Program-made: the position numbers and the translations under genes | The notes under the pieces: generated by a model | The model's database searches: none | What the model was told of the DNA's origin: nothing | What the model saw: the letters and a program-made list of their open reading frames with translations, nothing else | Source of the DNA: Phycisphaerae bacterium | Lineage (GTDB): Bacteria; Planctomycetota; Phycisphaerae; UBA1845; Fen-1342 | Reading direction: 5' to 3' | DNA length: 64,000 bases | NCBI GenBank assembly: GCA_022072445.1 | Contig: JAJVHV010000030.1 | Coordinates: 5,971-69,970 of the forward strand | Part shown: positions 10,452 to 63,887 of the stretch, piece by piece | How the letters are laid out: each line of letters opens with the position of its first letter | Numbering within the stretch: position 1 is the stretch's first letter

Positions 10452-11380
10452 TGGGCGAGCACTTCGCCGACGCGCTGCTCGCCCGGATTCGGGAGCTGCG
10501 CGCCCCGGCCGCGGTCGGGCTCGATCCGCTCGCCGCGCGTCTGCCGCCCGAGCTGCGCGTCGACCCCGACGATGACGTCGCCGCCGCCGCCGCGTTCGAA
10601 GCCTTCGGCCGCGGCGTGATCGACACCGTCGCGCCGCTGGTCCCGGCGATCAAGATCAACTCCGCGTTCTTCGAAGCGCAGCACGAGCACGGCGTCGCGG
10701 CCTATTTCCGGCTGATCGCCCACGCCCGGCAGCGCGGCCTGCTGGTCATCGGCGACGTGAAGCGCGGCGACATCGGCTCAACCGCCGCACTCTACGCCCG
10801 CGGCCACCTCAGCGGCCGCGCGGCGCCCGACGCCGTCACGCTCGCCGGCTATCTGGGTGAAAACGCGGTCCGGCCGTTTGTCGACGTTTGCCGTGCCGAG
10901 CAGCGCGGCGTGTTCGTGCTCGTCCGACCGTCCGATCCGGGCGCTGACGAAGTTCACGAATTCGCAGGTGCTGCCGGTGCGACGCCCGGCTCGGCACGCC
11001 CGTTCTATCGTCACATGGCATCGCTGGTGGCGCGCTGGGGCAGCGACAGCGATCTGATCGGTCGGAGTGGGTACTCGTGCGTCGGCGCCGTGGTCGCGGC
11101 GAAGGACGCCGCCAGCACGCGCGCCCTGCGCGACGCCATGCCTGGCACGCTATTCCTGGTTCCCGGTTACGGCGCGCAGGGCGCTACCGCCGAAGCGTGC
11201 CGAAACTGCCTGAACGCCGACGGCCTGGGCGCGATCGTCAACGCGTCGCGCTCCGTCATCTTCGCCTACCTGGACGCCGGCGTCGCGGAGCGCGGCGGGG
11301 GCGACTGGCGCCGCTGCGTGCGGCTGGCGTGCGAAGATTTCGTCGCCGATCTACGCCGCGCGGGCCTGGCGCCCGCGTAG
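10451..11380 (+). CDS. pyrF: orotidine 5'-phosphate decarboxylase, type 2
   Basis: IKINSAFFEA...LLVIGDVKRGDIGSTA motifs. ATG at 10451 overlaps the bcp stop (TGATG). Confidence 0.85.
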   Translation: MGEHFADALLARIRELRAPAAVGLDPLAARLPPELRVDPDDDVAAAAAFEAFGRGVIDTVAPLVPAIKINSAFFEAQHEHGVAAYFRLIAHARQRGLLVIGDVKRGDIGSTAALYARGHLSGRAAPDAVTLAGYLGENAVRPFVDVCRAEQRGVFVLVRPSDPGADEVHEFAGAAGATPGSARPFYRHMASLVARWGSDSDLIGRSGYSCVGAVVAAKDAASTRALRDAMPGTLFLVPGYGAQGATAEACRNCLNADGLGAIVNASRSVIFAYLDAGVAERGGGDWRRCVRLACEDFVADLRRAGLAPA

Positions 11381-12774: not shown

Positions 12775-13263
12775 CTACTCCGTCCGCACCTTGACGGTCT
12801 TCGGCTTGGCCCCGGCGCTCTTGCCGACGCGAATTGTCAGCACGCCGTCCTTGAATGACGCGTCGACGTCGTCGGCGTCCACGCCGCTCGGCAGGCGGAT
12901 ACTGCGCTGAAATCCGCCGAACTGCCGCTCGACGTAGTGGTAATTCTTCTGCTTCTCTTCGCGATCCGAGCGCTTTTCGCCGCGGACCGTCAGCACGTCG
13001 CCGCTGATCTCGACGTCGACGGCGTCTGGATTGACGCCCGGCAGCTCCATCGTGACCGTGACGGCGTCGGCCGTATCGGCCAGGTCGGTGCGCGGCATGG
13101 CGATCAAGTCCTCGTCGGCCTGCTCCCACGGCCAGGCGAACGGATCGCGCATGAAGCGCTCCAGGACGGACTCCATCTGGTCGCGCAGCAGCGACAGCGG
13201 CTGGTCAATCGGCGCCAGCGCGCTTCCTACCTCTCGCTTTCGTCTCCACGGAACGAGTTTCAT
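12775..13263 (-). CDS. Hsp20/alpha-crystallin family small heat-shock protein
   Basis: Alpha-crystallin domain: [38 protein letters not shown]...GVLTIRV. Confidence 0.85.
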
Positions 13264-13348
13264 GTCGAACCTCCTTCCTCGTCAGTTCAGAACTGCGCTC
13301 CGGACAGCTCAGCCGGAGCATACGTCTGGTTCCTTGCGTGGTTGCATG

Positions 13349-13747
13349 TCACGTCGGCTTGACGGCAATCTTCCGCGGCCGAAGCGCGCGGACCTTCGGC
13401 AAATGAAGCGTCAGCACGCCGTCCTTCAGTTCGGCCTCGATCTTCTCGGCGTCAATTCCTTCGCCGATCGTGAAGGCACGATGAAAGTCCCCGACGCCGT
13501 ACTCGCGCCGCAGGTAGCGCGTTCCTGCTTCCTGCCGCGGCTTGACGGTGCCGCGGATCGTCAGTTCGCCGCGCTCGTAGCGCACGTCGACGCCCTCGCT
13601 GGATACGCCGGGCATGTCGGCCAGCAGCAGCAGCTCTTCGGGCGTCTCGACGATGTCAACGAAGGGCACGTAGGTCCGGCCAGCCTGCACGCGCTCGGGC
13701 TTGACGTCCTGGGCGCAGCACGCGTTGTTATTGTCATGTGTCGTCAT
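13349..13747 (-). CDS. Hsp20/alpha-crystallin family small heat-shock protein
   Basis: VDIVETPEELLLLADMPGVSSEGVDVRYERGELTIRG...GVLTLHLPK. Confidence 0.85.
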   Translation of the reverse strand: MTTHDNNNACCAQDVKPERVQAGRTYVPFVDIVETPEELLLLADMPGVSSEGVDVRYERGELTIRGTVKPRQEAGTRYLRREYGVGDFHRAFTIGEGIDAEKIEAELKDGVLTLHLPKVRALRPRKIAVKPT

Positions 13748-13795
13748 GGTAAATCTCTCCCGCGGGCGCGGCTTCGCCGCCGCCCGTTGTCCTGG

Positions 13796-14233
13796 TTAGT
13801 TGGTTCGCACCGTGATCTTCCGCGGCAGGGCCTCGGGCGACTTGGTCAGCCGCACGGTCAACACGCCGTCGCGCAGCGTCGCGTCGACGTGCTCCGGATC
13901 GACGCGGCAGGGCAGCGTCACGACGCGCGAGAACTCGCCGACGCCGCGCTCCCGTCGCTGATACGTCCGCTCGGCGCCGTCGTGCCGCTCGCGTGAGCCC
14001 TTGATGACGAGTTCGTCGCCGGCGGTGGTAATCTCCACGTCCTCGCGCCGCACGCCGGGGACTTCGGCCTCGATCATCACGCTCTGCTGATCTTCCCAGA
14101 CGTTGATGGCCGGGAACGTCGCCGCACCGCCGAGCTCCGTCGCGACCCGGAATCCGAGATCGTCGAAGAGCCGGCCCATCTGCCGCTGAAGATCGTCCAG
14201 CGGATTCCACAGCAGTGAATTCCTACGCAGCAT
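13796..14233 (-). CDS. Hsp20/alpha-crystallin family small heat-shock protein
   Basis: INVWEDQQSVMIEAEVPGVRREDVEITTAGDELVIKG...GVLTVRLTK. Confidence 0.85.
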   Translation of the reverse strand: MLRRNSLLWNPLDDLQRQMGRLFDDLGFRVATELGGAATFPAINVWEDQQSVMIEAEVPGVRREDVEITTAGDELVIKGSRERHDGAERTYQRRERGVGEFSRVVTLPCRVDPEHVDATLRDGVLTVRLTKSPEALPRKITVRTN

Positions 14234-14515: not shown

Positions 14516-16312
14516 ATGGACCCGGCCCGCATCCGCAACTTCTCGATCGTCGCGCACATCGACCACGGCAAGAGCACGCTCGCCGACCGCCTCCTGCAGC
14601 GCAGCGGCGCCGTGGCCGACCGCGACATGAAGGAGCAGATGCTCGATTCGATGGACCTGGAGCGCGAGCGCGGCATCACGATCAAAGCCAGCGCCGTCAC
14701 CATCTCGGTCACCGTCGACGGCCAGGAGCACATGCTCAATCTGATCGACACGCCCGGACACGTCGACTTTCATTACGAAGTGTCGCGGGCGCTGGCGGCG
14801 TGTGAAGGGGCGCTGCTCGTCGTCGACGCCACGCAGGGCGTCCAGGCCCAGACGGTGGCGAACGCCTACGCCGCCATCGCCGGCAACCTCGAGATCATCC
14901 CGGTGGTCAACAAGGTCGATCTGCCCGGCGCGCATCCGGAGGACACCGCCATCGAGATTGAGCACGTGCTGGGGATCGATTCCGGCCACGTGCAATTCGT
15001 GTCTGCCAAGACCGGCCTGGGGGTTGATGAGATGATTCGCGCGATCGTGCGGCACCTTCCGCCGCCGCGCGGCGACGCCGCGGCACCGCTTCAGGCGCTC
15101 GTATTCGACTCGATCTACGACGACTATCGCGGCGTGATCTGCTACATCCGGCTGTTCAACGGAACGATTCGCAAGGGGCAGAAGGTGCTGCTGATGGGCC
15201 GTGGGCGGCACTACGTGGTCACCGAGCTCGGCAAGCTCCGCCCGAAGATGTCGCCGATCGAGACGCTCGCCGCCGGCGAGGTCGGTTACGTCGTCGCGAA
15301 CATCAAGATGCTGCAGGACGTGACGGTGGGCGACACGATGACCGACGCGCTGACGCCGGCCGCCGAGCCGCTGCCGGGTTATCAGCCGCCCAAGCAGATG
15401 GTTTTCTGCGATTTTTATCCGGCGGGCGGGGAGGACTATTCGGAGTTGCGCGACGCACTGCAGCGGCTGAGCCTGAACGACGCGTCGTTCACGTTCGTCC
15501 CGGAGCACAGCGAGGCGCTCGGCTTTGGCTTCCGCTGCGGATTCCTGGGCCTGCTGCACATGGACATCGTGCAGGAGCGGCTGGAGCGGGAGGCGGGGAT
15601 CGACGTGGTGCAGACGGCGCCGTCGGTGACGTACGAAGTGCTGCTGAACGACGGCGCGCAGTTGCAGATCGACGCCGCCGGCGACCTGCCTTCGGCCGAC
15701 AAGTACCAGGAGCTGCGTGAGCCGATCGTCGAGGTGCAGTTGATTATTCCGGCCGACGCGGTGGGGGCGATCATGAAGCTGACCGAGCAGCGCCGCGGGG
15801 CCTACCGCAAGACCGAGTATCTTTCGACTTCGCGCGTGCTCATGACGTACCACATGCCCTTCAACGAGATTCTCTACGATTTCTATGACAAGCTCAAGAG
15901 CGTGACCCGCGGCTATGGGACGATGGACTACCACTTCATCGGCTACCAGGCCAGCGACCTGGTGAAGCTCGACATTCTGGTCAACAGCGTCGCCGTCGAC
16001 GCCCTTTCGGTCATTCTGCACCGCTCGAACGCCGAGCGCCGCGGGCGGCGCATCATCGCCCGCCTGCGTGAGGAGATCGACAAGCACCTGTTTGAAATTC
16101 CGCTTCAGGCCGCGATCGGCTCGCGCGTTATCGCCCGCGAGACCATCAAGGCCATGCGCAAGAACGTGACGGCGAAGTGCTATGGCGGCGACGTGACCCG
16201 CAAGCGCAAGCTGCTGGAGAAGCAGAAAGAGGGCAAGAAACGGATGAAGACGGTGGGGCGGGTGGATATTCCGCAGAAGGCGTTCATGACGGTGCTGGAG
16301 CCGGAGGAGTAG
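14516..16312 (+). CDS. lepA: elongation factor 4 (LepA)
   Basis: N-terminal NFSIVAHIDHGKSTLADRLL, G-domain and LepA C-terminal domain; ~598 aa from ATG 14516. Confidence 0.9.
   Translation: MDPARIRNFSIVAHIDHGKSTLADRLLQRSGAVADRDMKEQMLDSMDLERERGITIKASAVTISVTVDGQEHMLNLIDTPGHVDFHYEVSRALAACEGALLVVDATQGVQAQTVANAYAAIAGNLEIIPVVNKVDLPGAHPEDTAIEIEHVLGIDSGHVQFVSAKTGLGVDEMIRAIVRHLPPPRGDAAAPLQALVFDSIYDDYRGVICYIRLFNGTIRKGQKVLLMGRGRHYVVTELGKLRPKMSPIETLAAGEVGYVVANIKMLQDVTVGDTMTDALTPAAEPLPGYQPPKQMVFCDFYPAGGEDYSELRDALQRLSLNDASFTFVPEHSEALGFGFRCGFLGLLHMDIVQERLEREAGIDVVQTAPSVTYEVLLNDGAQLQIDAAGDLPSADKYQELREPIVEVQLIIPADAVGAIMKLTEQRRGAYRKTEYLSTSRVLMTYHMPFNEILYDFYDKLKSVTRGYGTMDYHFIGYQASDLVKLDILVNSVAVDALSVILHRSNAERRGRRIIARLREEIDKHLFEIPLQAAIGSRVIARETIKAMRKNVTAKCYGGDVTRKRKLLEKQKEGKKRMKTVGRVDIPQKAFMTVLEPEE
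16061..16312 (+). repeat. direct repeat copy 1 (3' end of lepA), 252 bp
   Basis: 249/252 identical to 17507-17758; the three differences are all synonymous in the lepA frame. Confidence 0.9.
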
Positions 16313-16350
16313 GCGGGCGTACTGTGCGATGTATCGGTGCAGGGAGGTGC

Positions 16351-16713
16351 GTGAATGAACCCGTCGGACTTCCTTATGATGCTGGCGGTGCTCCTTGGGC
16401 GGTTCTCGCGGTTCAGGTGCAGAAGTGGCTCGAGCTGCTTCGTGCGAGCAAACGTCGCCGTCACGAGCTCTTTCGGACTCTCATGACCACTCGAGCCAGT
16501 CGAATCTCACCGGCTCACGTCGAAGCCCTGAACATGATCGATCTAGACTTCGCCGCGGCTAACGACCGTGACAAAGCCGTTCGGATGCCTGGCGGGTCTA
16601 CCACGATCATTCGAACACGCCTGACGATGACAACGAATCGGTGGCCGGGCGATGAGCTGTTCGTCGAGCGCGGCAGCCGGCCCGCAGAGCACTGGCGATC
16701 CGAGGCAACGTAG
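16351..16713 (+). CDS. hypothetical protein inside the lepA-inserted island (start uncertain; ATG at 16483 is an alternative)
   Basis: Open frame only; no recognisable motifs. Confidence 0.25.
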   Translation: MNEPVGLPYDAGGAPWAVLAVQVQKWLELLRASKRRRHELFRTLMTTRASRISPAHVEALNMIDLDFAAANDRDKAVRMPGGSTTIIRTRLTMTTNRWPGDELFVERGSRPAEHWRSEAT

Positions 16714-16779
16714 GGCAGGGTGAACTGGAGCCAGGAGCGACGCTTCCTGAGCGCGGTAGAATAGTCTTGGAGAGTATCG

Positions 16780-17046
16780 ATGACCCTGCACATCCCGCTG
16801 ACGGCGGAATCGGAAGCCCGACTGCGCGAATACGCCGCCGCGGTCGGGAAGGACGTTACTAGCCTGGTTGCGGAGGCCATTGAGGAGAAGCTGTCCCTGC
16901 TCGACGGCGCGCGGGAAGCGCAACGGCGTCCGCGCACGACCGAAGAGTGGCTGGCGGAGTTCGACGCTTGGGTGGACAGCCACAAACCGGCCGGAAACGT
17001 CGCGGACGACAGCCGTGAGGGCATCTATGAGGGGCGCGGCGAGTGA
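16780..17046 (+). CDS. type II antitoxin, ribbon-helix-helix/VapB-like
   Basis: MTLHIPLTAESEARLREYAAAVGKDVTSLVAEAIEEKL has an RHH-like start; stop overlaps the downstream PIN gene start (GTGA). Confidence 0.6.
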   Translation: MTLHIPLTAESEARLREYAAAVGKDVTSLVAEAIEEKLSLLDGAREAQRRPRTTEEWLAEFDAWVDSHKPAGNVADDSREGIYEGRGE

Positions 17047-17501
17047 GAACGCTGCTGGACACCAACGTGCTCGCGCGCATCATCCAGAAATCTCATCCGC
17101 AGCACGAGGCCGCGCGGCGTTCGGTGCGCATCCTGCGAGCGCGTGACGGCGAATTGTGCATCGTCCCGCAAGTGCTCTACGAACTGTGGGTCGTCTGCAC
17201 GAAACCGGCAGGCTCCAATGGGATCGGCCTCAGCATCGCGTCCACACGGGCCGAAATGGCGTCGATCCTGCGATTCACCACGCTGTTTCGCGACGAGCGG
17301 GCGATCTTTGAGCACTGGGACCGCCTGGTCGCCACGCACGACGTGAAGGGCAAGTCCGCTCACGACGCACGGCTGGTGGCCGCCATGTTGCGGCACAAGT
17401 TGACGCACATCCTCACCTTCAACACAGGTGATTTTCGCCGCTACCCAGAGATCGAAGTTCTAACGCCCGCAACGATTGTTAGCGACGCGAGCCGCGGATG
17501 A
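17043..17501 (+). CDS. PIN-domain toxin (VapC family)
   Basis: LLDTNVL motif at the N-terminus (first PIN acidic residue); further acidic residues spaced as in PIN; GTG start coupled to the antitoxin. Confidence 0.75.
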
Positions 17502-17506
17502 AGGGA

Positions 17507-17758
17507 CGCCTGCGTGAGGAGATCGACAAGCACCTGTTTGAAATTCCGCTTCAGGCCGCGATCGGCTCGCGCGTTATCGCCCGCGAGACCATCAAGGCCA
17601 TGCGCAAGAACGTGACGGCGAAGTGCTATGGCGGCGACGTGACGCGGAAGCGCAAGTTGCTGGAGAAGCAGAAAGAGGGCAAGAAACGGATGAAGACGGT
17701 GGGGCGGGTGGATATTCCGCAGAAGGCGTTCATGACGGTGCTGGAGCCGGAGGAGTAG
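17507..17758 (+). pseudogene. orphan duplicate of the lepA 3'-terminal 84 codons (direct repeat copy 2)
   Basis: Encodes [16 protein letters not shown]...TVLEPEE, identical in protein sequence to the LepA C-terminus; no upstream lepA body. Confidence 0.7.
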
Positions 17759-17815
17759 CTCCCGGCGATTGTTCTGCCCGGAATCACTATCCTCGACCGT
17801 CCCTCCGCCGATAGA

Positions 17816-18046
17816 ATGGAAATGATGCCAGCCGAGCTTACGATCATCTACGAGCGCGGTGCCGAGGGTCGGTGGGTCGCAACCATCCCCGAAGTACCCG
17901 GCGCGTTCTCTCAGGGCAAGACCAAGGCCGAGGCCCGCGAGAACGTGTTGGACGCACTCAGCGAGTTGATGCTCGCGCGCCGAGATCGGGCGCTGCGAGA
18001 ACGCACCAGTTCCGGTGACGTCGAGACGGTGCCGCTGGCCGGTTAG
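17816..18046 (+). CDS. HicB-family type II antitoxin-like protein (orphan)
   Basis: LTIIYERGAEGRWVATIPEVPGAFSQGKTKAEARENVLDALSELM is the HicB/UPF0150 signature; no hicA is adjacent. Confidence 0.55.
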   Translation: MEMMPAELTIIYERGAEGRWVATIPEVPGAFSQGKTKAEARENVLDALSELMLARRDRALRERTSSGDVETVPLAG

Positions 18047-18204
18047 CGCTCCGCGGGTGGGTCGATCCTTCCCGCAGCAATTCGCAGCCTTGTTTGCGCA
18101 AATGTCGGACGAGCCTGGCGCGCTTCATACGTCCCTACATGGTCTCGCGGCTGCGGCGCGGCCTCTCGGCACCAGGACGCCTCCGCGCTGCTGCGCGCGG
18201 CAAC

Positions 18205-61332: not shown

Positions 61333-61701
61333 ATGCAACGACGCCCGAACCAGCGCGAAAACCGCGAGGCGCTCCGCGGCCCGATTGACAATCGCGTCAT
61401 TGGACAAATCGTAGACCGCTTGTCCAAGCGGTTGCCGGACTGCTGCATTGTGCTTTTCGGCTCCCGGGCCTACGGAACGCCGACCAGCCAGAGTGACGTT
61501 GATCTGCTGGTGGTGGCCCCGTCGCAACGTGACCCGTACGTGCTCTGCGGCGAACTACATCGCGAACTCAGTCCACGGGATTTCTCCGTTGATCTACTGG
61601 TCATGACGCCCGAGACTTTTCGTCAGCGCCGCTCACGGTTTGATCCGTTTTTTGCAGAACTCACCTCAAAGGGCCGCGTCCTGCATGGTCATCTCCCCTG
61701 A
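61333..61701 (+). CDS. minimal nucleotidyltransferase (MNT)
   Basis: VLFGSRAYGTPTSQSDVDLLV. Confidence 0.8.
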   Translation: MQRRPNQRENREALRGPIDNRVIGQIVDRLSKRLPDCCIVLFGSRAYGTPTSQSDVDLLVVAPSQRDPYVLCGELHRELSPRDFSVDLLVMTPETFRQRRSRFDPFFAELTSKGRVLHGHLP

Positions 61702-62071
61702 TGCGGCGGAATGGGTCGATCGCGCCGAAGGGGACGTGCGCGCGCTTCGGAAGCTCGACCCAGTCGAGGATCGTGTCGTCGTGGCGTTTCTCGCTCAGCA
61801 GGCCGCGGAGAAGTACCTGAAGGCCACTCTGGTCAACAGCCGGATATGCTTTCCAAAACCACACGACTTGGTCGCGCTCGTCTCCCTGTGTCGGCAGATC
61901 AGTGATGAATTCGAGTCGTTGGTGGGCGCTGCCGCCGTGTTGCAGCCCTTTGCGGTGGACGTGCGATATCCCGGACCCGCCCCCGGAGAGGCCGCCGTGC
62001 GGGCGGCGATTGAGAATATGGACGTGATCCGAACCTTTTGCCGCGAGAGGCTTGCGCTGCAAGCGCCCTGA
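61685..62071 (+). CDS. HEPN domain protein
   Basis: AAEKYLKATL...R-x6-H (RICFPKPH); overlaps the MNT 3' end. Confidence 0.8.
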   Translation: MVISPDAAEWVDRAEGDVRALRKLDPVEDRVVVAFLAQQAAEKYLKATLVNSRICFPKPHDLVALVSLCRQISDEFESLVGAAAVLQPFAVDVRYPGPAPGEAAVRAAIENMDVIRTFCRERLALQAP

Positions 62072-62850: not shown

Positions 62851-63549
62851 GTGAGAGCATTGCCGATTAAGCCGCAGAAGTGGTTAGAGATGCTTGCTGA
62901 GGACTTGGTGCGCGACATCACGTCCAACCACTCGTTGCGCAGGTACACGACAAACGCGGATCTGCTTGGGGCGTGGGCTGAAGCGTGCGTACGAAACCTG
63001 ATTGCTCGCATGGTTCATCCGCTGCGAGTCTCACGCGGTGCGATCGTTTACGAAGGCATTTGCCCGGACGAAGTCCCAGAGCTGGATGCCATCGTGTGGA
63101 CCGCCGCACCCGTGCCGGCGGTCTTCGATCTTGGCGACTTTGCAATAGTACCGCGCGGCTCGGCCGTTGCTTTTCTTGAAGTCAAGCGAAGCGCGTACAC
63201 CGGCGTAAGCGACCGGATGCGCAAGACGCTCAACGGTACTGAGTGTCTCATCACACATTGCGAGCAAGAAAAGGGAACGCGCTTGGACGGAGAGGCTCTG
63301 GGTGTCGTCTGCATGAAGAGAGAGGACCAGAAACTCGACCGCACACTCCAAAGGCTCATGGACGACCAGAAGGCTGTTCTGCTCCTTGAGGAGAAGAATG
63401 GGTCCTGGAGGGCCATGGCGAGGGACGTACTTCGGCTTGTGAACTTTCTCGCGGCGGTGCGGGTCCGTGCGTTCGTCCTTGCATCCCAGCTCGGCGTAAA
63501 CACCGAGATTCTGGCTCCGGTACTAGGTAGCGACGGGACAGCGTCATGA
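62851..63549 (+). CDS. hypothetical protein, possible PD-(D/E)xK-like nuclease fold
   Basis: D...FLEVKRS spacing (D-x13-E-V-K); weak. Confidence 0.35.
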   Translation: MRALPIKPQKWLEMLAEDLVRDITSNHSLRRYTTNADLLGAWAEACVRNLIARMVHPLRVSRGAIVYEGICPDEVPELDAIVWTAAPVPAVFDLGDFAIVPRGSAVAFLEVKRSAYTGVSDRMRKTLNGTECLITHCEQEKGTRLDGEALGVVCMKREDQKLDRTLQRLMDDQKAVLLLEEKNGSWRAMARDVLRLVNFLAAVRVRAFVLASQLGVNTEILAPVLGSDGTAS

Positions 63550-63887
63550 TCGGTATCTGCACGCCCGTTCGAGTCACCGACGAACGGATCGCCGAAGTCG
63601 TGCGCCGCCTGGTCGAGGCGTTGCATCCGCAGCGCATCTACCTCTTCGGCTCGCATGCCTACGGAACGCCTCACGCGGACAGCGACGTCGACCTCCTTGT
63701 GCTGGTTGATGACGCCGAGCTGACGCAGGACGATCATGACCAGCGCGGCTATCGCTCTCTGCGCGGGATGTTTCTACCCATCGAGCTGCACATTCGAGGT
63801 CGGCAGGCGTTCGAACGGCGCGCGGTCGCTCCTCACAGTTTCGAGAACGAGATCCTGCGAAAGGGCAAGCTGCTCTATGCCGCGTGA
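63546..63887 (+). CDS. minimal nucleotidyltransferase (MNT)
   Basis: YLFGSHAYGTPHADSDVDLLV. Confidence 0.8.
   Translation: MIGICTPVRVTDERIAEVVRRLVEALHPQRIYLFGSHAYGTPHADSDVDLLVLVDDAELTQDDHDQRGYRSLRGMFLPIELHIRGRQAFERRAVAPHSFENEILRKGKLLYAA

Follow-up and report, generated by a model that had tools for sequence, protein, structure and literature searches.

Architecture of the lepA Locus

We examined the gene lepA (elongation factor 4) and the small vapBC toxin–antitoxin (TA) cassette that follows it in a stretch of 64,000 nucleotides, hereafter the window, from a Phycisphaerae bacterium (GCA_022072445.1, contig JAJVHV010000030.1, positions 5,971 to 69,970). The last 252 bp of lepA, stop codon included, lie at 16061–16312 and recur at 17507–17758, with a spacing of 1446 bp. 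Base-by-base comparison bore out the coordinates and codons given in an earlier note on this DNA: the copies differ at exactly three sites (16198 C/G, 16201 C/G, and 16211 C/T), which in the lepA frame read ACC/ACG (Thr), CGC/CGG (Arg), and CTG/TTG (Leu), all synonymous. The right edge of the repeat coincides exactly with the TAG stop of lepA, beyond which (16313 vs. 17759 onward) the sequences are unrelated; to the left of copy 2, weaker similarity to lepA continues for ~26 bp into the end of vapC, so that the repeat may be extended to 16035/17481. A 33-nt lepA tail occurs twice in the window against zero occurrences expected by chance. No further copy of the cassette unit was found elsewhere in the 64 kb, and the cargo is single-copy. 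Thus, 252-bp direct repeats flank the cassette in the manner of attL and attR while lepA is left intact, as elements that insert into gene 3′ ends leave them, a pattern that the earlier note had recognized. The features of the locus, all on the forward strand, are as follows (ORF, open reading frame).

14516–16312, +: lepA (elongation factor 4), full length, 598 aa; Pfam GTP_EFTU, GTP_EFTU_D2, EFG_C, and LepA_C
16061–16312, +: repeat copy 1, the end of functional lepA with its TAG; carries the relatives' common state at the three variable sites
16198–16211 (partner 17644–17657), +: 14-bp patch holding all three differences, from pairwise comparison of the copies
16355–16713, +: decayed DUF6680-like gene, likely a pseudogene, with at least two frameshifts (Pfam match and frame switches)
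16780–17046, +: vapB-type antitoxin gene, 88 aa (weak family matches and position before vapC)
17043–17501, +: vapC toxin gene (PIN-domain ribonuclease), 152 aa, apparently intact (Pfam PIN)
17481–17506, +: older, diverged stretch, probably lepA-derived (~62% identity to lepA), forming the last codons and TGA of vapC
17498–17758, +: 86-aa ORF over copy 2, its ATG at 17498 overlapping the vapC stop (ATGA); Pfam LepA_C positions 28–106 of 107
17507–17758, +: repeat copy 2 (lepA′), left over from the lepA 3′ end and resembling an attR scar (repeat comparison)

The LepA of the window is 100% identical to a protein of a metagenome-assembled genome (MAG) named Elongation factor 4, Phycisphaerae bacterium, at NCBI, where the window lies on a contig of 207,637 bp. 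MAG assemblies can collapse or expand repeats, and an assembly artefact was a doubt that the earlier note itself had raised; like an in situ tandem duplication without any insertion, it is scarcely credible here. The Logan unitig L001 (1254 bp, raw reads SRR10609163) is 100% identical to 16283–17536; an artefact is unlikely because both junctions are present in this read-built sequence, which breaks 30 bp into each repeat, as any repeat causes. The same lepA–cassette–lepA′ architecture also occurs in independent MAGs, unitigs, and read sets, and a tandem duplication would have doubled the single-copy cargo too.

Between the copies the earlier note had seen a small ORF, an antitoxin, and a PIN toxin. 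The last two stand, whereas the small ORF is a frameshifted DUF6680 remnant: its match (E=2e-18) covers only profile positions 17–75 of 170 and is split across three reading frames, and the frameshifts are not random assembly errors, given that the read-built unitig is identical. The coupling of the TA genes was correctly described, with the GTG start of vapC overlapping the TGA of vapB (GTGA). VapC, which NCBI names tRNA(fMet)-specific endonuclease VapC, matches Pfam PIN (E=2.6e-11, 44.6 bits, cut-off 23.6) and, under the curated cut-off, NCBIfam Mtu_PIN_fam (E=2.7e-14). By inspection, the acidic residues D6, E47, and D108 are present together with N127/D130, and are conserved in the two closest homologues described below; such acidic residues form the active site of PIN domains. 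The family matches of VapB are weak (PSK_trans_fac, E=0.0075; RelB-like antitoxin, E=3.7e-5) and both fall under curated cut-offs; the protein is 65–71% identical to the product of the gene ahead of vapC in the same two relatives. By its sequence features, vapBC classifies as a putative VapBC type II TA module. The GC content at third codon positions (GC3) of the insert is mildly atypical (0.78–0.80 vs. 0.87–0.90 in host genes), and a promoter and terminator scan of 16200–18200 gave nothing interpretable.

A vapC–lepA′ Junction Shared with Relatives

The two closest VapC homologues (64–65% identity) both adjoin lepA, in L082 (GCA_964532435.1) and L084 (GCA_016235145.1). The order is lepA–ORF195–vapB–vapC–lepA′ in L082 and lepA–small cassette–lepA′–ORF222 (opposite strand)–vapB–vapC–lepA′–DUF2442 gene in L084. 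Relative to the lepA stop, the relic starts at −252 in the window, −258 in L082 (blastn E=4e-13), and −261 in L084 (E=2e-19), and weaker lepA similarity in the aligned tails extends to ~−285. The L082 relic (10459–10640) has a 68-bp internal deletion and that of L084 (3929–4024) is truncated. In the tail alignment, the vapC TGA of all three genomes occupies one column, opposite ATC-ATC of lepA. Since the stop lies at the same column in three genomes, the junction between vapC and lepA′ arose once, and its shared ancestry is well supported. The final vapC codons, with ~16/21 bases matching, are probably encoded by former lepA sequence. The event is also old, as the carriers have diverged to 77–81% identity in LepA, 64–72% in VapC, and 65–76% in VapB; a recent arrival is at odds with the same junction in genomes this distant. 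An arrangement already present in relatives, which that note had named as evidence against a mobile island, is indeed what we found; yet empty lepA ends exist among relatives as well.

Two Logan unitigs from further read sets cover parts of the same arrangement: L083 holds ORF195–vapB–vapC, covering the vapBC segment, and L085 holds the end of vapB, vapC, and the DUF2442 gene that follows the L084 relic. By contrast with the shared junction, the segment from the lepA stop to vapB is unrelated among the window, L082, and L084 (homology was sought and none found), and the DUF6680 segment has no counterpart in either relative. In the LepA tree the vapBC carriers are scattered, each beside a noncarrier. 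A further VapC homologue, 63% identical (L117), does not lie near lepA, so the VapC family as a whole is not bound to this gene. A third degraded lepA tail suspected by eye at ~16718–16742 was rejected: its local alignment is no better than that of shuffled sequences (p ~0.24), and the same holds for L082 and L084.

Probable Gene Conversion of the Relic

The two copies in the window are nearly identical, with the identity distributed unevenly. It jumps from ~62% over 26 bp (−278 to −253) to 249/252, the step falling 5 nt beyond the end of vapC. Over its final 129 bp the L082 relic matches its own lepA at 100%, against 92–95% for lepA of L084, L086, L088, and the window and 86% for that of L087, while in its left part the match to its own lepA is 83–85%. 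When only the old left portions are compared, the relics are 83% (L082) and 81% (L084) identical to their own lepA but 66% to each other. Such patterns give good support to gene conversion from lepA as the best explanation for the near-identity of the window copies. Moreover, a longer conversion tract would exchange the vapC TGA for the lepA ATC and extend VapC, so that selection on the toxin gene, to keep its stop, plausibly sets the left limit of the tract.

All three mismatches fall inside 14 bp. Random sites would lie that close with P=0.007, and three out of three would be synonymous at random with P=0.013. Being confined to 14 bp, the differences probably reflect one event, and a single short recombination or conversion event explains the patch better than long independent evolution as coding sequence. 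The earlier note had concluded from the synonymous differences that the two copies had evolved in separate lineages, each while still coding; with three changes in 14 bp, identity over the rest, and an older part at ~62%, this deduction appears weak. At the three sites, copy 1 has the states common in the lepA of relatives and copy 2 has states unseen there, a polarization compatible both with mutation of the relic and with import of an allele not sampled here.

Duplicated lepA Tails across the Clade

We collected clade lepA loci from close LepA homologues, one metagenome scan with the clade tail sequence, and a genome scan. Of 17 distinct loci, 8 have one or two additional copies of the lepA tail after the gene, a fraction that is indicative only, as two loci were found through VapC. 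Among 80 genomes of other lineages, one (L017, Acidobacteriota) has a duplicate lepA tail within 6 kb. The inserts span 0.3–1.5 kb and carry mostly TA-like cargo, and tandem arrays occur in L084 and L094. Cargo abuts both junctions, and the terminal cargo ORFs end no more than ~15 bp from the tail, in some cases within it. On the left, the tails begin at variable positions (−41, −63, −75, ~−90, ~−117, −126 to −130, and −252 to ~−290), whereas everywhere except L095 the tails end at the lepA stop. Thus, the end of lepA is a repeated landing site for small cassettes in this clade. The cargo recorded so far is listed below.

Window, L082, L084: vapBC
L086: DUF4160 + DUF2442
L094, L096, L095: DUF4258-like + DUF2283, with or without a YgiT-type zinc-finger gene
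L084: unannotated 107-aa ORF + weak YgiT-finger ORF
L093: nucleotidyltransferase
L094, second cassette: membrane protein
L017 (Acidobacteriota), insert: 23S_rRNA_IVP four-helix-bundle gene, 173 aa

Unoccupied lepA ends were found in six relatives (L087, L088, L090, L097, L116, and L002). They are candidates, among distant relatives, for the empty site that the earlier note sought: the nearest LepA among 5.8 billion proteins is 83% identical, and with the nearest GTDB genome, L002 (LepA 79%), there is no flanking synteny. Exact-protein look-ups of LepA, and of a HicB-like ORF beyond copy 2 (see below), returned no match.

Several of these loci deserve separate description. In L094 (5084–6714; L096 is identical), the DUF4258-like and DUF2283 genes are followed by a 93-bp tail, then by a 304-aa membrane ORF and a 120-bp tail; the clade consensus ...PEE-TAG survives in the first relic, whereas functional lepA terminates in ...PED-TGA, and the cargo start overlaps this altered lepA stop. 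L095 shares the DUF4258/DUF2283 cassette, retaining an 85-bp spacer lost in L094; there (93–1110) a ~100-bp direct repeat spans the lepA stop from ~−41 to ~+60 and so includes intergenic DNA, unlike the other cases. In L017 (7803–8412), a Pyrinomonadaceae MAG, the insert directly adjoins the end of lepA, and beyond it the lepA tail recurs over 74 bp at 86% identity, a like geometry in an unrelated phylum. The ORF of the small L084 cassette (1427–1750) is 57% identical to a ~105-aa ORF of Phycisphaerae bacterium RAS1 (L115, 11855–12169), both directly after lepA. The pair gave no Pfam or NCBIfam match; judging by sequence, with the L084 copy preceding a weak YgiT-type ORF, it could be an undescribed toxin family.

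Recombinases and lepA as an Attachment Site

No recombinase gene lies between the repeats or among the 30 mid-size window ORFs scanned on both sides of the locus, and the label of remnant in the earlier note, given for want of an integrase, is apt. Nor was a recombinase found in the 8–10 kb annotated around L082, L084, L086, L115, and L116. Among IMG/VR viral contigs, by contrast, 17 carry the 3′ end of lepA, and in at least nine low-GC contigs (L098–L106) a tyrosine-integrase-like ORF of 378–390 aa begins 80–110 bp past the lepA stop; four representatives match Pfam Phage_integrase and the rest have their N-terminal sequence in common with these. In L109, two large serine recombinases lie side by side ~540 bp downstream of lepA, L114 has one ~2.7 kb downstream, and one low-GC prophage group matches Listeria monocytogenes. 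Integrase genes abutting lepA in low-GC prophages therefore indicate that integrases use the lepA 3′ end, in other phyla. Since no integrase was seen in the annotated parts of the occupied Phycisphaerae loci, an integrase-mediated origin there would rest on analogy with those phyla. Even so, the description of lepA as an unusual target does not hold, in view of the tail duplications of the clade and of the recombinase genes directly after lepA in IMG/VR. A search of viral contigs with the clade lepA tail gave zero matches, and hence no free or phage-borne copy. In the literature we found no direct report of lepA as an att site or of TA cassettes with duplicated gene ends.

Evolutionary Model and Its Alternatives

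Overall, we suggest that the locus is probably what remains, reduced and decayed, of an insertion made long ago at the lepA 3′ end, in the manner of a cis-mobilizable element (CIME). One ancestral event joined the end of vapC to lepA ~285 bp before its stop, giving the arrangement lepA–cargo–vapBC–lepA′ relic now common to at least three Phycisphaerae lineages. A larger element may have targeted the lepA 3′ end and duplicated it, as prophages appear to do elsewhere; deletions would then have removed all but the addictive vapBC, reaching the gene ends and trimming them a little, which would explain why vapC now stops within lepA-derived DNA. Subsequently, the noncoding relic seems to have been overwritten repeatedly by conversion from functional lepA, the last tract in the window covering all 252 bp and halting 5 nt after the vapC stop, and the 14-bp patch would go back to one subsequent event, being a short tract of recombination or a patch that escaped conversion. 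The gap between the lepA stop and vapB is a site of further turnover, occupied in the window by the DUF6680 pseudogene and in L082 and L084 by genes unrelated to it. Although the cassette itself encodes no recombinase, 252-bp direct repeats would permit its precise loss through RecA, which would account for the patchy distribution in relatives; post-segregational killing mediated by VapC would counter such loss, so that addiction, along with concerted evolution, would maintain the scar.

Several points weigh against this model. Each cassette would need two-sided deletions that halt just at the gene ends, and the scattered vapBC carriers require either several independent losses or horizontal spread of the cassette. 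No integrase or larger element is seen in any of the eight occupied loci (8–10 kb were annotated with Pfam in L082, L084, and L086, and the ORFs from lepA to the tail in the others). Gene conversion is deduced from identity patterns, and differences that are all synonymous, together with the unique states of copy 2, are slightly awkward for a noncoding relic.

On a reading that builds on the earlier note, the locus is a recent, trans-mobilized mini-island that came from another lineage with a lepA end of its own. Under that proposal the repeat geometry would be as it is, as would the three synonymous differences, the GC and GC3 of the insert, slightly under those of host genes, and the empty sites in some relatives; even so, we consider it very unlikely. 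The junction is shared with genomes at 77–81% LepA and 64% VapC identity and is hence old. A foreign donor lepA should differ widely over 252 bp, between-species identity being 80–89%, whereas only three differences exist, within 14 bp, and the older part of the relic, with the vapC stop inside it, has already fallen to ~62%. The island reading is only partly borne out, as an insertion remnant at the lepA end. It is also conceivable that copy 2 serves as a third gene, coding for a LepA C-terminal mini-protein of 86 aa that is translationally coupled to VapC and modulates either the toxin or ribosomes. In favor of this, the reading frame is unbroken, an ATG overlapping the stop of vapC recurs at the same position in L084, and every difference from lepA is synonymous. 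Against this, the 68-bp deletion destroys the frame in L082, which moreover has CTG in place of ATG, and in L084 the frame ends after ~30 codons; a function as protein is therefore unlikely. In addition, the first quarter of the LepA_C domain is missing, and the exact product has no record in the gene-position index searched. We thus regard this role as highly improbable, and the 86-aa ORF is probably not a functional gene.

A more far-reaching proposal, and the main rival, is a cassette system without an integrase, in which circles of cargo plus lepA tail enter lepA by recombination within the conserved tail. Entry could be RecA-dependent, of the Campbell type or facilitated by homology, or could use a recombinase of the host or one acting in trans, making the system an analogue of integron cassettes and pdif modules. 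At least nine clade cassettes, all of 0.3–1.5 kb and mostly TA-like pairs of different families without a recombinase, are in keeping with it, as are the single tail per cassette in the arrays of L084 and L094 and the phylogenetic patchiness of the vapBC-plus-tail unit. The tail also starts in the most conserved part of LepA_C, which would give homology across species, and in the unrelated L017 a 74-bp lepA tail flanks an insert of one gene. Nonetheless, the left ends of the tails vary from −41 to ~−290 and share no conserved core motif, and no hairpin is apparent, with tail fold z-scores of −0.13 to +0.43 on both strands against shuffles. In L093 and L094 the atypical last codons are on functional lepA and not on the relic, which fits an element that brings its own gene end, or a later deletion. 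No circle was observed and no second copy occurs in the 64 kb, scans of viral sequence and with DNA patterns yielded no free cassette, and the 63%-identical VapC of L117 has no lepA association. On balance we hold such a system to be unlikely. The broader claim that the last 40–290 bp of lepA act as a cassette recombination site in Phycisphaerae, and perhaps more widely (cf. L017), with TA cassettes gained, stacked, and lost there, seems to us quite unlikely on present evidence. We retain the decayed remnant of an old insertion as the preferred explanation.

Neighboring Genes

Directly after copy 2 lies a HicB/UPF0150-like ORF of 76 aa (17816–18046, +; Pfam E=1.3e-5, just under the cut-off), overlapped by a convergent ORF (17958–18128, −) that has no family match and whose N-terminus is HicA-like by eye. 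Together they may be another degraded TA pair, in which case several TA-type genes would follow lepA. Immediately upstream of lepA and divergent from it stand three consecutive Hsp20/alpha-crystallin genes (162, 132, and 145 aa; 12775–14233, −). Near the end of the window, a HEPN-domain gene and an NTP_transf_2 nucleotidyltransferase gene (61640–62071 and 63546–63887, ~1.5 kb apart) represent parts of an MNT/HEPN-type TA system; MNT/HepT pairs are also found downstream of lepA in L082 and RAS1. In L086 (3074–4595), a contig of 4.85 Mb, transposase-like genes (DDE_Tnp_1, DDE_3, and HTH_23) and a terminase-like gene lie 3–7 kb upstream of lepA.

Significance and Comparison with Known Systems

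How chromosomal TA modules move and persist is poorly understood, and the lepA locus with its relatives offers a concrete case that can be traced. One conserved gene end has gathered at least six TA-like cassette types, each with a lepA-tail scar and none with a recombinase left; it is this build-up across the clade, with a lepA tail marking each TA cassette, that most merits attention. The locus illustrates how addiction modules may outlast the rest of eroded insertions, and how a pseudogene fragment can evolve in concert with its parent gene, here with a conversion boundary apparently set by a toxin stop codon. It also calls for caution in annotation, short LepA_C ORFs downstream of lepA probably being scars and not genes. 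Should the integrase-less cassettes prove true, they would represent a new route of gene-cassette mobility, anchored at a housekeeping gene.

Compared with other VapBC modules, that of the window has the usual PIN toxin with conserved acidic residues and a small overlapping antitoxin gene ahead of it; it differs in that the last codons and stop of vapC apparently derive from lepA, and its NCBIfam VapC and antitoxin scores are under the curated cut-offs. The low-GC prophages at lepA share the target gene end, with the element starting within ~100 bp of the stop. Their hosts, however, belong to a different phylum, and they carry a tyrosine or serine recombinase and phage genes, neither of which occurs at the window locus; one end of each prophage could be read. 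An autonomous integrative element is defined by an integrase of its own, and for the window locus none was found between the repeats or among the 30 ORFs scanned.

Integrons provide a further parallel. In the superintegrons of Vibrio, small cassettes poor in promoters, often TA pairs, are strung together in arrays, each with a recombination-site-like element, and TA pairs are thought to stabilize chromosomal integron arrays. The lepA units are alike in being small cassettes, many with TA pairs, each followed by a repeated element. Yet no intI is present among the 30 scanned window ORFs, the repeated element comes from a housekeeping gene and is not attC, without hairpin potential, and its lengths and left ends vary without conserved core sites. 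The window locus, with no intI and no attC-like fold, is thus not an integron cassette.

The closest match is with CIMEs, elements that lack integration and transfer genes but retain attL and attR (PMC5704250). In the ICESt1/CIME model, decayed integrative elements keep these sites and accrete in tandem (PMC5704250). The lepA units are distinct in several respects: they measure only 0.3–1.5 kb and carry almost solely TA-like pairs, no related integrase-bearing element is seen at lepA in the clade, and the repeat is long (252 to ~290 bp) and homogenized with the gene. They resemble CIMEs in stacking in tandem at one target, as in L084 and L094, and in leaving the target gene intact. With both repeats present and no recombinase, the window locus corresponds to the descriptive definition of a CIME, with descent from an integrative and conjugative or mobilizable element putative.

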